Positions 9,008 to 16,253 of a stretch of DNA of 64,000 nucleotides are shown here, one piece after another. Below the pieces are notes generated by a model, which was not told the origin of the DNA, did no database searches, and saw only the letters and a list, made by a program, of their open reading frames with translations. Position 1 is the first letter of the stretch. Each line of letters begins with the position of its first letter. Source of the stretch: Schmidtea polychroa (taxonomy: Eukaryota); the NCBI GenBank assembly GCA_044892525.1, contig CM097885.1, positions 28,212,001-28,276,000 on the forward strand, read 5' to 3'. The position numbers and the translations under genes are program-made.

Positions 9008-10226
9008 TTATACTAGCACGGTTCTATTTGCAGTAATTTGAACTTCATTTTCAAATACTCCATATATTATAACATGTACCGGTTCAGTAATAGCTTTTGC
9101 AAACTTAATATCCAGTCGTAAATTCCCGTTTTGTGGTAGTTGACTCTGATTTAAATCAAAATCAGGGGCTAAAACAAATGTAAAAAATGGATATTTGCTT
9201 TTAAATTCTTCTAGAGTTATTCCACAATTCAAGTTTTTATCTAAGTAACCCAGATTTCTAACAATACTCTGCATATATGTCGCACAGTAATTATCGCTTT
9301 CGAAATCTTGAGTATATGTTTCTCTATAATCAGTATTTTTCGACAAAGTCAATGAAGTAACACCAAAATTTTTGAAAATTGAGCTGGAAGCAGTATATGA
9401 TCCATTATATTGCGTTTCATTTTGAAATGTTACCAGAATAAAATTAGGCATTCTTCTGTCACCAAATATTTGTTCTTTATAGAATGATGAAGCACCTTTA
9501 GCAATAGCAAATTGTACAATTTCCTTTGTTTTTAAAGGATAAATTGCATGTTTTGAATTAAGACCCAATTGATGACCAGCTAATACTGACGGGTCTACTC
9601 GAACTCTTCTCACCAATAATTTTGCATCAACTAATTGGCATATTGGTGCACCAGTTGCACTAGTAAGAGATAATGCAGAATCGGACCTTTTCAATCTAAT
9701 GTGTACATTAACTCCTGGTAGCAAATATTTCGGTTGATCCATAAAATCGAGTTGTAATGATGAGCACATAGTGAATGATTTTGAGCCTTTAACCCACTTT
9801 TTTCTTTCATCATCTGTTGCTGCATAACCCATAGGTGTAAGACAGGTATTTTTAGTATCAGAATTGTAATTTAAAATAGTTTCTATCAAAGCCTTGTGAA
9901 TGAATGTATTATTTCCGCCCTCAATCTTAATATTATTAAATCCCAAGACTGCATCTTTAAACAGAGTATGAAACATGAAATTGTTCGGTATTACATCTGC
10001 ATTGGCATCCAAAACTTTTCTATCTTTATCTACAACCTTGATCTGGACAGTCAATAAAGTATCGTTATAAATATTCAGTTTGCGAACCATTAATATAAAA
10101 CTCGATATCATTTCTACTATCAGTAATTGAATTCATAGGAAAAACTTCCTCAAAGGCCCCAAATTCGATTACCGCTTGAGGCGATGGTCTATCAAATATA
10201 CATAATTCAGATTTACCACAAATCAT
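9008..10226 (-). pseudogene. Major capsid protein (double jelly-roll), frameshifted near 10066
   Basis: Near-identical to Mav2 MCP; GAATATTTATAACGAT versus GAATATTTAGATTTGAACGAT is a net 5-nt loss giving an immediate stop. Confidence 0.85.
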
Positions 10227-10585
10227 TTTGCAAATATAGTTCCATGTCCTTTCATTCGTTTGTTTATACGCGATATTCCATGTCCTTTACGTTTTGGAGC
10301 TGGGGCTGGGGGCGTATCTTTTTGAAACATACCAGCAGCTCCAGGTAGAACCTTCCCTAACTCAGCTAAATCATTTGTTTTTAGGGATGGTAATATTTTC
10401 TGTTCATTCATAATAACATCTTTTGCAGTTTTCATACCAAAACTACCGATACGTTTAAGAATAGGAAGTGCAAATCTCCCTATTGTTTTTAACCAACCTG
10501 ATCCGTACTGTTTACCAATAAAATATGGTAATTCACCGCCAGATTGGATATCACTATACATACTAATAATATCGGAATTAGCCAT
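10223..10585 (-). CDS. Small Polinton virion protein, adenovirus pVI-like (amphipathic helix after putative adenain sites)
   Basis: IQSGG and QYGSG followed by WLKTIGRFALPILKRIG; basic C-terminus; ATGA overlap with MCP. Confidence 0.7.
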   Translation of the reverse strand: MANSDIISMYSDIQSGGELPYFIGKQYGSGWLKTIGRFALPILKRIGSFGMKTAKDVIMNEQKILPSLKTNDLAELGKVLPGAAGMFQKDTPPAPAPKRKGHGISRINKRMKGHGTIFAK

Positions 10586-11645
10586 CTACTTTACGAAAAT
10601 GTAGTGTCAAATGAGTTTTTGAGTCTTTTGGGAAGTTTATAAGTTTTCCACTATCGTCACGAATATTTATTTCTATATTGTTTATACATGAGCTTGCTAT
10701 TGGTAAATACATGGGATTATCGATATTTATATTGACAACTTCATCATGTTCATATTTTCCAATCCATACCGATTTCAAAAGAGGAACACTGGAATCACCA
10801 ACAATTATAGGCTCAATAATATTAGTATATATGAACATTTGTTGATGATGTTCAAGTATTCTTGGTTTACGTATACCAGCCGATTTTTCCCGATATTGCT
10901 GCTTCTCTAATCCAAGTGTATTTGTCAAATTTTTATCAAATGTAACTTCGCAAATATCATCATTCAAACTGAAGGTAAACATCAAATCTTTCACAATGTC
11001 CAAACTTTTAAATATGTGTGAACAATTGTACTTTAAATATTTAAGTAACACATCAAGTTTATCAATATATAATTCGTCAGCAAAGGTGAATGATTCTTCA
11101 ATTTCATTATTATACGACACTGATATTTTGATTTCTTCTCTCATTACACTGTTTGCTTCAAATAGATTAAAGCGTAATAAATATTCTGTTTCCATAACTT
11201 CATTTTTCAACTTATTGCAACCCAATCGTTTGGCATCTTCAATATATTCGAATGTTATTGTAAATGGTTTAAAATCACAACTGATATTTAATCCATCCTT
11301 GTAAAACATATAGCAGTGCTGATCTAATAGTTGATTTGGAATATGATATGTTTTATCATAATTACTGATAATAAAGATACCGCTACATGTTTTCATAGCA
11401 TTCCTTTTGAAATCAATCTTACATTGACTATAAAATGGGAATGTATTGTACACGAATGTAAAATCTTGCAGTGCAACTTCCCAGTCCCCATTTAAAGAAA
11501 TCGGATTCTGGAGATTGACCATGAATTTACTGGCTTGATTATCTGGATGAATAAGCGGGCAACTATTGCTTGGTAAAATAGTATAAAAATTCACTTTACT
11601 AGATCCTTTTCTGATATCCATGATGGGTTTTGATAACCATGCCAT
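10578..11645 (-). CDS. Minor capsid protein (penton)
   Basis: FYTILPSNS..DN..SKF..L.NPI.L.GDWEVAL N-terminus and IEINIRDDSG..INF..HLTLHFRK C-terminus typical of Polinton penton. Confidence 0.88.
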   Translation of the reverse strand: MAWLSKPIMDIRKGSSKVNFYTILPSNSCPLIHPDNQASKFMVNLQNPISLNGDWEVALQDFTFVYNTFPFYSQCKIDFKRNAMKTCSGIFIISNYDKTYHIPNQLLDQHCYMFYKDGLNISCDFKPFTITFEYIEDAKRLGCNKLKNEVMETEYLLRFNLFEANSVMREEIKISVSYNNEIEESFTFADELYIDKLDVLLKYLKYNCSHIFKSLDIVKDLMFTFSLNDDICEVTFDKNLTNTLGLEKQQYREKSAGIRKPRILEHHQQMFIYTNIIEPIIVGDSSVPLLKSVWIGKYEHDEVVNINIDNPMYLPIASSCINNIEINIRDDSGKLINFPKDSKTHLTLHFRKVDG

Positions 11646-12781
11646 TTGACATAGAATTGTTTATCCTTGCCGACCATTTTAGTTTTCAATATCTTTTGAA
11701 TTCTAAATACTTTTGGGGGAGGAATAACTTGTAATTCTTGCTCATAAAACTTTCCTTGTACAATATTGTTATCATAATCACTGATGACATACATTACAGG
11801 ATTCTGACTAGTATTTATTTTTGAAATTACAAAGACTTCATCACTCCAATTTGTATCGAAATTTTTAATAAATGGTGATGCACTAATTTTACTAATTCTA
11901 ACATGGTCACCGACTTTATATTTAGGTTTTGCAATTTTTACAGATTTCTTAGAATAGATTGTTTTTGATGTAATATCAACCGGTCTCAATCTATTAAGTC
12001 CTCGATGTGATGAATGATTATAACTTGTTATTATTTTCGGTAAAGCATTTACCCATTTTTTATTACCTTGATGCACGAACAATTTCTTTAATCTATCTCT
12101 CAATGTTCGATTAAATCTTTCAACATGGGCAGCTTTGTATTGAGAATGTACCGAGTAGTGATTTATTTTCAGTTTATCGAGGATTTGCTTGACTTTACTG
12201 TTGTAGAATTCTTTACCTAAAATAATAATAATAATAATAATAATAATAATAATAATAATAATAATAATAATAATAATAATAATAATAATAATAATAATAA
12301 TAATAATAATAATAATAATAATAATAATAATAATAATAATAATAATAATAATAATAATAATAATAATAATAATAATAATAATAATAATAATACCTAAATC
12401 TGTTTGCAAGTTATTAGGATGTCCATCTTTAAATAAATCATTAACAGCTTTAGACATTTCATCTGCAGATTTTGCCTTGACGGGTATTGCTCGGGCAAAC
12501 CGATTGAATACATCAATACATGTTAAAATATATTTATACCCATTGTTAATTTTCGAATAAGGTATCATCTCCATCAAATCCATTTGCCATAAATCATTTA
12601 TTCCATATGTTTTATATACTCTTGTTGGGAATCGTTTCTGCATTGGTTTGTTCAAACTGTACGCAAGCTGGTCTGATAACCACTTCTGGGTTTCTTTTTT
12701 CGAATTCGGAACTCTTTTGTTTAATTTTGCCACTCCACCGAAACCGGCTTCGTCTTCTGGGTTCGTCCAAATCTTCTCCAT
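11591..12781 (-). CDS. Retroviral-like integrase with C-terminal chromodomain; intron 12217-12393
   Basis: WQMDL, QTDLG|KEF after splicing, VERFNRTL, YVKWHGY chromodomain. Confidence 0.93.
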   Translation of the reverse strand: MEKIWTNPEDEAGFGGVAKLNKRVPNSKKETQKWLSDQLAYSLNKPMQKRFPTRVYKTYGINDLWQMDLMEMIPYSKINNGYKYILTCIDVFNRFARAIPVKAKSADEMSKAVNDLFKDGHPNNLQTDLGIIIIIIIIIIIIIIIIIIIIIIIIIIIIIIIIIIIIIIIIIIIIIIIIIIIIIIIIILGKEFYNSKVKQILDKLKINHYSVHSQYKAAHVERFNRTLRDRLKKLFVHQGNKKWVNALPKIITSYNHSSHRGLNRLRPVDITSKTIYSKKSVKIAKPKYKVGDHVRISKISASPFIKNFDTNWSDEVFVISKINTSQNPVMYVISDYDNNIVQGKFYEQELQVIPPPKVFRIQKILKTKMVGKDKQFYVKWHGYQNPSWISEKDLVK

Positions 12782-15365: not shown

Positions 15366-15785
15366 ATGACAAAGAAAATTTCAAGCACTGAAAAGCCAAA
15401 AGTTGTTCCAGAACTTGTACAACCTGTTCAAATGTTCCACAACTATAAAATGTATTTTTTAAAAGAAGAAATCAATATAAAATTGGTGTCACCGATCAAG
15501 CTAATTCCAACTAAATTTCAATTCTTATCCGGCACGCTTTCAATGTTAGATGTTAAATCTATTGATGAGGTTTTCAAACGGTTGAATACGAATCTATCTT
15601 GTAATCAACATGCCTGGTTCAACAACAGATATGCAAGATTTTATGATTCATTTGATGAAATCGGTTTCAAAGAAAACGAAAATTGGTATATTGCAATTGC
15701 AATCCAAGGATATAAAGTTGATAATAATGATGTGTATTCTCCAATTTGGAAAATTATGTCTGCTAGACTTTCACAACTATTTTAA
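15366..15785 (+). CDS. Unknown conserved protein (possible OB-fold ssDNA-binding protein)
   Basis: Highly conserved with 45072-45482; upstream ATTGG and TATAAAAA; function is a guess. Confidence 0.75.
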   Translation: MTKKISSTEKPKVVPELVQPVQMFHNYKMYFLKEEINIKLVSPIKLIPTKFQFLSGTLSMLDVKSIDEVFKRLNTNLSCNQHAWFNNRYARFYDSFDEIGFKENENWYIAIAIQGYKVDNNDVYSPIWKIMSARLSQLF

Positions 15786-15918
15786 TGTTATATTTAATAA
15801 ATGTATTAGTCATATTTGTTTTTTCTCTTTATTAATTGCAACATTAATGCAAATGACATGCAAATTTAACAAAGAAAATCTATAAACAAACTTATAATAT
15901 AGTTTTAAAGTGTTATTA

Positions 15919-16253
15919 ATGACTACAGAAAAAGGTTAACATGATTAATTAAATACCGAATTATTTATTATTTAGAATTATTAATCAACTTTTTGTTGGA
16001 AAAGTTAGCAGAAATAGCTGGTGTAAAAATTGAGGATATATTATCTATTACAAATGCCTTAAATATCGGCTGGGTAGCTGAGAGTCAAGATTCAGGATTT
16101 GACAATCATGAAGAAACTCAAGAAATTGATGACGAAATCTATGAACCTATAGAGGAACCTAAAGATAATATTACGAATGATTGTATTGATCATGTCGTTG
16201 AAAATATAATGAAATGTGGAGATGACGATTGCGAATGTGTTAATAAATTTTAA
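15919..16253 (+). CDS. Unknown acidic protein with Cys-rich C-terminus; intron 15935-15975
   Basis: MTTEK|ELLINFLLEK after splicing; conserved in Mav2. Confidence 0.7.

Follow-up and report, generated by a model that had tools for sequence, protein, structure and literature searches.

Each of two Maverick/Polinton elements in the 64-kb window (the whole stretch of DNA analysed) encodes a TBP-like protein, and a short box, TATAAACA, recurs upstream of capsid and packaging genes in both. This raises the question of whether the box is a core promoter and whether the element's own TBP reads it, as a first-pass annotation had proposed. The elements have the terminal inverted repeats and 6-bp target-site duplications of Mavericks and the core gene set of PolB, rve integrase, packaging ATPase, adenain-type protease and double-jelly-roll capsid; these features, together with Bcl-2 cargo, are common to the adintoviruses/Mavericks described previously (Starrett et al. 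2021, PMC8502044). Pfam matches were over cut-off for the ATPase and protease and under cut-off for rve, while the capsid was assigned by Atlas, its search against the PDB giving no sequence match. The protein-primed PolB is 55-72% identical to copies matching PF03175. The elements and their genes are as follows.

1988..17910, unstranded: Mav1, Maverick/Polinton copy 1, with terminal inverted repeats, AGTAG ends and 6-bp target duplication TTTATT
28581..48618, unstranded: Mav2, Maverick/Polinton copy 2, with terminal inverted repeats and 6-bp target duplication CTCAAT
38632..39852, minus strand: major capsid protein, Mav2 (Atlas double-jelly-roll cluster, score 0.98; Mav1 copy interrupted near its 5' end)
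39849..40220, minus strand: putative pVI-like basic protein, Mav2 (Mav1 10223-10585; first-pass label)
40207..41280, minus strand: penton-like gene, Mav2 (Mav1 10578-11645; Atlas neighbours are Preplasmiviricota, without a family name)
41226..42383, minus strand: integrase with chromodomain, Mav2 (Mav1 11591-12781; rve and Chromo matches under cut-off)
42214-42441: myristoyl-type ORF, Mav2, overlapping the integrase
42445..42978, minus strand: putative pX-like basic protein, Mav2 (Mav1 copy 12893-13339 interrupted; first-pass label)
42997..43623, minus strand: packaging ATPase, Mav2 (Mav1 13353-13991; Mav1 copy matches Pfam Pox_A32 over cut-off)
14097..14561, plus strand: TBP-like gene, Mav1, element-encoded; canonical TATA at -36, without TATAAACA
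43723..44160, plus strand: TBP-like gene, Mav2, 145 aa; canonical TATA at -34; model pLDDT 96
45072..45482, plus strand: putative ssDNA-binding protein, Mav2 (Mav1 15366-15785); CCAAT and canonical TATA, early-class control
46278..47194, unstranded: divergent Bcl-2-like gene (minus) and 165-aa ORF (plus); CCAAT and canonical TATA, early-class controls

The first-pass annotation gave the box as a 9-mer, TATAAACAA, at 12 positions, every one of which proved exact and on the coding strand. There are 16 copies in the window, where 4.9 would be expected, and no shuffle out of 100 gave as many; of the other four, one lies within an element and three in host DNA. Because the Mav1 and Mav2 cores are 88.8% identical across 6078 bp, the 12 boxes represent six orthologous sites. 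Four of these six lie inside ORFs, in keeping with the earlier remark that most are embedded in the upstream ORF, and the distances to the ATG given previously agree with those re-measured here, including that of a variant, GATAAACA, before the second penton Met. Distances below run from the first T to the ATG.

14018..14026, minus strand: box, ATPase, Mav1; intergenic, 35 nt
43648..43656, minus strand: box, ATPase, Mav2; 33 nt
13371..13379, minus strand: box, pX-like gene, Mav1; 40 nt, within the ATPase end (Y-K-Q codons)
43003..43011, minus strand: box, pX-like gene, Mav2; 33 nt
12918..12926, minus strand: box, myristoyl-type ORF (overlaps integrase), Mav1; 87 nt
42520..42528, minus strand: box, myristoyl-type ORF, Mav2; 87 nt, within the pX-like ORF
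11657..11665, minus strand: GATAAACA variant, second penton Met, Mav1; 44 nt, within the integrase end
41292..41300, minus strand: GATAAACA variant, second penton Met, Mav2; 44 nt
10678..10686, minus strand: box, pVI-like gene, Mav1; 101 nt, within the penton end (I-N-N codons)
40313..40321, minus strand: box, pVI-like gene, Mav2; 101 nt
10260..10268, minus strand: box, major capsid gene, Mav1; 42 nt, within the pVI-like ORF
39886..39894, minus strand: box, major capsid gene, Mav2; 42 nt
15881..15889, plus strand: box, acidic gene, Mav1; intergenic, 38 nt
45577..45585, plus strand: box, acidic gene, Mav2; 38 nt
8353..8361, minus strand: extra box, missed by the first-pass annotation; lies about 130 nt ahead of a small ORF that follows the protease

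The target of the extra box is uncertain because the small ORF has a nearer CCAAT and TATA-like run. The boxes at 12918 and 42520 had been assigned to the myristoyl-type ORF or the integrase; the former holds as target and the latter does not. Likewise, recurrence of the motif was borne out but its length was not: the ninth base varies among relatives (A35, T12, G4, C3; n=54), and the motif is thus the 8-mer TATAAACA. The first position of this 8-mer tolerates C or G and the eighth tolerates G, giving a relaxed form, [T/C/G]ATAAAC[A/G], that was defined post hoc, after the data had been seen. With the host flanks as background (6 TATAAACA per 28,038 bp), eight 110-nt upstream windows contained six copies against 0.09 expected (P ~9e-10, or 6e-5 corrected for all 8-mers). 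No such box lies within 130 nt upstream of the protease gene in either window copy. Counted genome-wide, the pattern is dominated by background (28,160 matches vs 22,544 in the control). The commonest unfamiliar genome-wide match was a coding coincidence inside PolB of another subfamily, and a second repeat also matched.

Enrichment and positional tests, both suggested in the first-pass annotation, were positive in out-of-sample relatives, namely 51 dereplicated clusters of TBP-carrying metagenomic elements. A TBP search of IMG/VR returned one distant contig (L031), which was excluded from every count; an ATPase query and two capsid queries of IMG/VR gave no relatives, and the phage collection searched gave no match. 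Across the 51 clusters TATAAACA occurs 109 times against 35.7 expected and is the top non-simple 8-mer. Nearly half of these copies (54/109) lie 28-50 nt upstream of an ORF ATG, compared with 284/4748 for 167 letter permutations and 6/109 for the reverse orientation. The box-to-ATG distances end sharply at 32-33 nt on the short side, much as for canonical TATA (35-46). Gene class was equally discriminating: the strict box precedes 38/57 ATPase, pX, myristoyl, penton, pVI and MCP genes but 0/57 TBP and SSB-like genes (0/48 for TBP alone), and the relaxed motif precedes 53/57 capsid and packaging genes vs 1/57 TBP/SSB-like genes. The protease, a late function, has a strict box in only 2/8 cases. 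Some distant relatives have C in place of T at the start of the box; no co-variation was seen between this base and the tabulated TBP residues.

The presumed early genes of the elements (TBP, SSB-like, Bcl-2-like) carry canonical boxes, with CCAAT at the SSB-like and Bcl-2-like genes, and an initiator-like YCANW follows 29/58 canonical TATA boxes vs 6/64 TATAAACR boxes. The best folds for the SSB-like protein, T7 gp2.5 and Enc34 SSB (Z ~7), are tentative matches.

The Mav2 TBP was modelled as a full two-lobed saddle, in common with cellular and NCLDV TBPs (TM 0.67-0.79 to solved TBPs over ~170 columns). NCLDV TBPs topped the viral list in a fold search, in which herpesvirus BcRF1 gave only a weak match, and no close homology emerged. 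The Maverick TBP differs from cellular and NCLDV proteins in lacking the N-lobe helices, in having one intercalating Phe fewer (F38, F97 and F113 present; the fourth without counterpart) and in carrying invariant N, R, M, S or T in place of several DNA-facing residues. One of two central Asn residues is kept (N4), with S68 replacing the second. R44, M46, F38, N111, F97, F113, E93 and E95 are invariant in all 50-52 aligned rows. N-lobe residues were mapped by eye on sequence anchors against P0163, the C-lobe being mapped separately. One lobe, which would face the 3' half of the box, is rebuilt with invariant polar residues. The acidic stirrup, which binds TFIIB according to PMC12529657, is kept (E93 and E95 in 51/51).

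Whether TBP-less Mavericks lack the motif had been suggested as a check, and a TBP-less family of the same genome does lack it, with the box in 3/113 upstream regions. Four related fragments without a TBP match all lack TATAAACA, but they are incomplete (3.8-11.8 kb) and may have a TBP gene beyond their ends, and the GC content of three of them is high (51-56%). In the ATPase tree the TBP-linked sequences all fall on one side of a single unstarred branch (90/64), so the co-occurrence of TBP and motif may reflect one evolutionary event. Among the copies examined in this genome, no family with the same capsid and without TBP was found: a capsid search returned window-like capsids only, and fetched stretches had a near-full TBP match in 19/20 cases and a partial one in L131, while L157 and L158 also have a TBP match.

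The reading most consistent with these observations, with a probability of roughly 0.68, is that the element's TBP reads TATAAACA as a late core promoter, in a parallel to the herpesvirus vTBP/TATT system. The two parts of this proposal, which the first-pass annotation had made as one, differ in strength. Positional, orientation, synonymous-site and gene-class tests in divergent relatives give good support to a separate promoter class for morphogenesis genes, marked by the box; that the element TBP reads the box is supported only indirectly, by co-occurrence with the TBP gene and by the remodelled DNA-facing surface. Two boxes 87-101 nt upstream and the protease, mostly without a strict box, stand against the reading, as do the possible single origin of the TBP-motif association and a first base that varies with no matching change in the tabulated TBP residues.

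It is unlikely, but deserves most weight among the alternatives, that the core promoter is a weak form of TATA recognised by host TBP, TFIID or a host paralogue of TBP, with the element TBP acting otherwise, either as a general boost to element transcription or in competition with host TBP. The spacing equals that of canonical TATA, a crystal structure (1qn3) shows cellular TBP on a TATA variant with C(-25), and host TBP can bind C7 boxes via a Hoogsteen pair. Furthermore, in the TBP-less fragments L154 and L155 the corresponding end of the ATPase gene bears a different TATA-like word, TATAAGAC, so that these sites would be promoter slots whether or not a viral TBP is present. However, C7 is under selection rather than simply tolerated, as variants with A or G in its place are rarer than expected in the 51 clusters; canonical boxes stand before the presumed early genes of these elements, and TBP-less elements of the same host lack the motif.

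Reading by another element factor, or by helper-virus machinery as in virophages, is improbable. Virophages and PLVs have promoter motifs in common with their helper viruses, and herpesvirus vTBP requires five partners. Against this, spliceosomal-type introns indicate nuclear Pol II transcription (a GT..AG intron at 44284-44332 is skipped in one contig of a presumed-RNA run), and only the SSB-like accessory ORF recurs beside TBP in 80 loci, where nothing matched the 99-aa, acidic, Bcl-2-like or 165-aa ORFs.

The location of most window sites inside ORFs, and coding coincidences such as the PolB-internal match, might instead suggest that the motif simply follows from protein constraint (YKQ, INN, INK) and AT-richness, or that it serves the upstream gene as a signal at the RNA level. 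This very improbable account is largely refuted by fixed synonymous codons, the constraint that the first-pass annotation had proposed to look for: in the last 40 codons Y-K-Q/H uses TAT AAA in 20/21 cases (0.40 expected, p 1e-7), and I-N is written ATA AAC in 34/49 cases near gene ends vs 12/79 in gene bodies. Moreover, across lineages boxes occupy several reading frames as well as intergenic sites and move yet stay upstream of the same gene, as in L039, where the ancestral penton-embedded site is gone and a new box lies 33 nt before pVI; the box-encoded peptide is missing from the tails of ATPases that fall outside the TBP clade. A poly(A) signal was rejected separately, as boxes precede stop codons and sit before the head-to-head ATPase.

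Forkhead proteins recognise RYAAAYA in either orientation and at variable distance, with GTAAACA the usual best Fox site. Although ATAAACA matches this core and FoxM1 prefers TAAACA (PMC2910063), a host Forkhead site acting as upstream activator, raised in the first-pass annotation, is the least probable account, disfavoured by GTAAACA being unenriched and positioned in 1/52 cases, by a reverse orientation at background and by fixed ATG spacing with a sharp edge.

Under the preferred reading, TATAAACA would be the core promoter of morphogenesis genes in a TBP-encoding Maverick lineage. Host TFIID and Pol II would transcribe TBP, SSB-like and Bcl-2-like genes from CCAAT, canonical TATA and initiator. 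The short element TBP, with its polar, remodelled DNA face and no N-lobe helices, would then bind TATAAACA, a box that host TBP is proposed to use poorly because of the C at position 7; according to PMC4457894, C at this position inactivates a yeast TATA element. Finally, the acidic stirrup would recruit host TFIIB and Pol II without TAFs or initiator, with transcription starting ~30 nt downstream of the box, and capsid and packaging genes would come on only after TBP gene expression. A one-protein switch, in which a minimal altered-specificity TBP and TATAAACA form an orthogonal pair that activates virion genes through host TFIIB/Pol II without TAFs across a widespread Maverick lineage, has slightly better than even odds.

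The closest parallel is the beta/gammaherpesvirus late system (KSHV ORF24, EBV BcRF1, HCMV UL87; TATTWAA), which likewise pairs a viral TBP-fold protein with a minimal non-canonical TATA at structural genes, leaves early genes on conventional promoters and has polar for hydrophobic residues on the DNA face (PMC12529657). The boxes depart at different positions, 7 (C) in Mavericks and 4 (T) in herpesviruses. ORF24 is large and multidomain, belongs to the six-factor vTA complex of a system that depends on DNA replication, contacts Pol II directly and has lost the TFIIB-binding acids, whereas the Maverick TBP is a bare saddle that keeps E93/E95 and has neither the Pol II-binding N-terminal nor the C-terminal DNA domains. 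Virophage/PLV motifs (Gezel-14T/PgV early; Mavirus, Sputnik late) are also short and precede many genes of a small polinton-type genome; these are read by helper machinery, while the candidate reader here is element-encoded and the genes are apparently nuclear and spliced. In Starrett et al. 2021 (PMC8502044), TBP is a figure-legend label for MELD viruses in a non-animal section, the word 'promoter' is absent from the main text of both versions, and the text layer of the animal adintovirus maps in Fig S2 has no TBP label. Passage searches of PMC11296320 and 10.64898/2026.10.13.758929 found no promoter analysis. No description of a Maverick box/TBP pair was found in the literature searched, which lay outside most subscription journals and Repbase reports.

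The same box before capsid and packaging genes, together with a remodelled TBP, suggests that virus-like Mavericks carry a self-contained early-to-late switch, a suggestion drawn from sequence comparison. If true, the herpesvirus vTBP strategy would have arisen independently here, in its smallest form so far, and TATA recognition at position 7 could be studied with a natural altered-specificity TBP. A conserved late box and its candidate reader offer a direct experimental handle on short sequences, and bear on whether animal Mavericks form virions unaided and how their genes are timed. With a one-protein switch of this kind, the elements would count as autonomous nuclear viruses that run a genuine early/late programme, and the co-resident TBP-less family would use poxvirus-late-like starts and depend on a helper.

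The TATA-like box upstream of the capsid and packaging genes is almost certainly a real, selected and promoter-like element. The 12 TATAAACAA sites claimed by the first-pass annotation are all present, at exact coordinates and on the coding strand, and this 9-mer occurs 16 times in the window against 4.9 expected. The sites fall in two complete Mavericks (Mav1, 1988-17910; Mav2, 28581-48618), both of which show inverted repeats as well as a 6-bp target duplication; because the Mav1 and Mav2 cores are 88.8% identical, the window offers six box sites rather than twelve. In both copies, the first T of the box stands 33-42 nt from the ATG of the ATPase, pX-like, capsid and acidic genes, and in the window the distance is 44 nt for a variant at the penton gene, 87 nt for the myristoyl-type gene and 101 nt for the pVI-like gene. 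Canonical TATA lies at 34-41 nt in the TBP, SSB-like, Bcl-2-like and 165-aa genes of the window, accompanied by a CCAAT box at most of them, and the Mav1 SSB-like gene has an additional GATAAACA that overlaps its CCAAT. Neither type was found upstream of the protease gene in the window. At 9008 and 38632, an ATG that could open this gene overlaps the stop codon of the capsid gene (TAAATG), which suggests coupled expression and would account for a protease gene without a box.

Several other features of the window were recorded. The ORF beside TBP (45072-45482 and 15366-15785) has a predicted fold resembling that of an ssDNA-binding protein, T7 gp2.5 or the one from Enc34 (Z about 7, rmsd 2.8-3.4), and was seen again at roughly a quarter of TBP loci (21 ORF matches). 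The (ATT)n run within the integrase (12220-12392 and 41859-41994) has GT and AG at its borders and so resembles an intron more than an insert coding for poly-Ile; the 99-aa gene and the acidic gene also have short GT..AG introns. Downstream of Mav2 PolB there is a series of tandem GCAGACTATATATAAAA repeats (30950-31170), and the terminal repeats of Mav2 (29093-29812 and 47328-48047) are taken up by repeat arrays. Outside the Mavericks, five ORFs or remnants (1011-1817, 53393-54238, 57247-57801, 60850-61650 and 23535-24142) comprise two intronless kinase ORFs, a Tc5/CENP-B transposase fragment, a gene that is HMG-box-like by eye, and a PolB remnant.

An alignment of the element TBP retrieved 182 metagenomic relatives, 80 of which were kept and collapsed at 80% identity over 300 bp into 51 clusters (210 kb in total); the ATPases of the 80 loci are 27-76% identical to those of the window, and GC content is 27-47%. 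In these clusters the core TATAAACA, to which the ninth base is free, was the top over-represented non-simple 8-mer (109 against 35.7 expected). Only the single-base neighbours with C at position 1 or G at position 8 were clearly raised and positioned, and those with A or G at position 7 fell below expectation. Positional enrichment, on which the first-pass annotation had staked its promoter reading, was pronounced: 54 of the 109 copies lay 28-50 nt 5' of an ORF start versus 284/4748 copies of permuted words, with P values for the relatives inflated because the 51 clusters are still related to one another. Only 6/109 copies occupied this interval in reverse orientation, and GTAAACA stood at the box position in only 1/52. 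Box-to-ATG distances drop off sharply below 32-33 nt, which is what a TATA box with a very short leader would produce. The box is distributed unevenly among gene classes.

Genes of the metagenomic relatives with the strict motif TATAAACR within 130 nt of the gene start
ATPase: 14/21
pX-like: 6/6
Myristoyl-type: 1/3
Penton: 4/11
pVI-like: 6/6
Capsid: 7/10
TBP: 0/48 upstream
SSB-like: 0/9 upstream
Protease: 2/8
Integrase: 1/14
PolB: 0/2

A relaxed motif, [T/C/G]ATAAAC[A/G], defined post hoc, precedes 53/57 capsid/packaging-class genes versus 1/57 TBP/SSB-like genes. Some relatives (L043, L146-L147, L150-L151) have two tandem penton genes, with a box upstream of each.

The synonymous-site constraint foreseen where the box overlaps ORFs was also evident. 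Y-K-Q/H in the last 40 codons is written TAT AAA in 20/21 cases (0.40 expected), compared with 60/183 for other Y-K pairs in gene bodies and 9/28 near ends; where an A-starting codon comes next, I-N is written ATA AAC in 34/49 cases near ORF ends versus 12/79 elsewhere. At locus L039 the penton-embedded site is gone and pVI has a new box 33 nt upstream, and at four others (L032, L036, L055, L079) the myristoyl-ORF box lies at 33-35 nt, not 87. The constraint tracks the downstream gene rather than the upstream protein. Initiator-like YCANW follows 29/58 canonical TATA boxes versus 6/64 TATAAACR boxes, so that the two promoter classes differ by more than one base.

The first-pass annotation had suggested checking whether Mavericks without TBP lack the motif. 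In a second family of the same genome, which has a PF21738 capsid and was sampled in 15 stretches (14 of the 126 places listed and one chance find), it precedes 3/113 genes, with TATAAACA at background (29 in 148 kb). The three TBP matches in these stretches fall outside second-family ORFs, in window-type elements nearby; in 3/15 stretches (L132-L133, L138-L139, L157) the TBP-less element is no more than a few kb from the core of a TBP-type element, through either nesting or simple crowding. TAA(A)n immediately precedes the ATG in 85/113 second-family genes, after a T-rich stretch (L132-L141, L157 and L159-L176, all of the window's genome). The poxvirus late start is TAAAT(G), and the resemblance hints at dependence on a cytoplasmic helper virus. 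No promoter analysis was found in the available portion of PMC11296320. L181 and L182 share a repeat (98.7% identity across 3.3 kb) that matched neither Maverick family; in it, TATAAACA stands 32 nt upstream of an ATG.

Four partial fragments with a window-type ATPase and no TBP match (L153-L156) lack TATAAACA, and the TBP-bearing L152 has two copies. L154 (about 5200 and 7640) and L155 (about 910 and 3320) have TATAAGAC or TATAAAGAC at slots that hold TATAAACA in TBP-bearing elements. L152-L156 are Maverick fragments within bacterial genome bins, probably eukaryotic contamination. The box-encoding peptide ends 19/21 parsed TBP-linked ATPases and the window's own, 0/4 from TBP-less loci, and 1/104 parsed database ATPases (120 in total, 16 unparsed; taken without regard to TBP linkage), the single positive grouping with the TBP clade. 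The TBP-linked set occupies one side of a single branch of the ATPase tree, and support for this branch is weak (90/64), so the co-occurrence may reflect a single event. At least 6460 ATPase relatives were retrieved versus 109 TBP relatives, by searches that differ in reach, which suggests that TBP-bearing elements are a minority.

The 145-aa element TBP is modeled with high confidence (pLDDT 96) as a complete TBP saddle, its N-lobe having strands and no helices. Its C-lobe retains F97, P98, F113 and acidic E93 and E95, and has S68, T70 and invariant N111 in place of N, V and L of cellular TBP. When mapped by eye to the reference P0163, the N-lobe retains N4 and F38 but not the fourth Phe; at positions that are mostly small or hydrophobic in cellular TBP, it carries near-invariant N6, R44, M46 and Q25. 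In TBP, it is the N-lobe that lies over the box's 3' half, the half that holds the C7 departure. For cellular TBP, C at position 7 forces a Hoogsteen pair (PMC8643651) and inactivates the yeast HIS3 TR element (PMC4457894); host TBP can therefore bind a C7 box yet uses it poorly. A GT..AG intron of the gene downstream of TBP is absent from one contig of a presumed-RNA run, which fits nuclear Pol II transcription.

The Maverick family of the window is present in very many copies in this genome of 781 Mb (4175 first-look TBP candidates, 150 of them scored), and the box was present in 20/20 further stretches, upstream of the ATPase in 19/20. Polintons are PIWI-repressed and transcribed in a planarian, according to PMC8532177. 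In the adintovirus papers, as far as available, TBP appears as a figure label and promoters are not discussed; the literature searched, which included parts of 10.64898/2026.10.13.758929 and 10.1101/2022.07.28.501842, yielded no description of a Maverick late promoter among the matches listed. The best explanation, with a probability of roughly 0.7 and ranked above the unlikely reading by host TBP, is that the element TBP reads the box as a late switch. KSHV ORF24 (PMC12529657) also has a face rich in polar residues and recognizes a non-canonical late box; unlike the element TBP, it is without the TFIIB acids, and it acts in a six-factor complex. By this analogy, the box and the element TBP would operate like the herpesvirus vTBP system without being a member of it.
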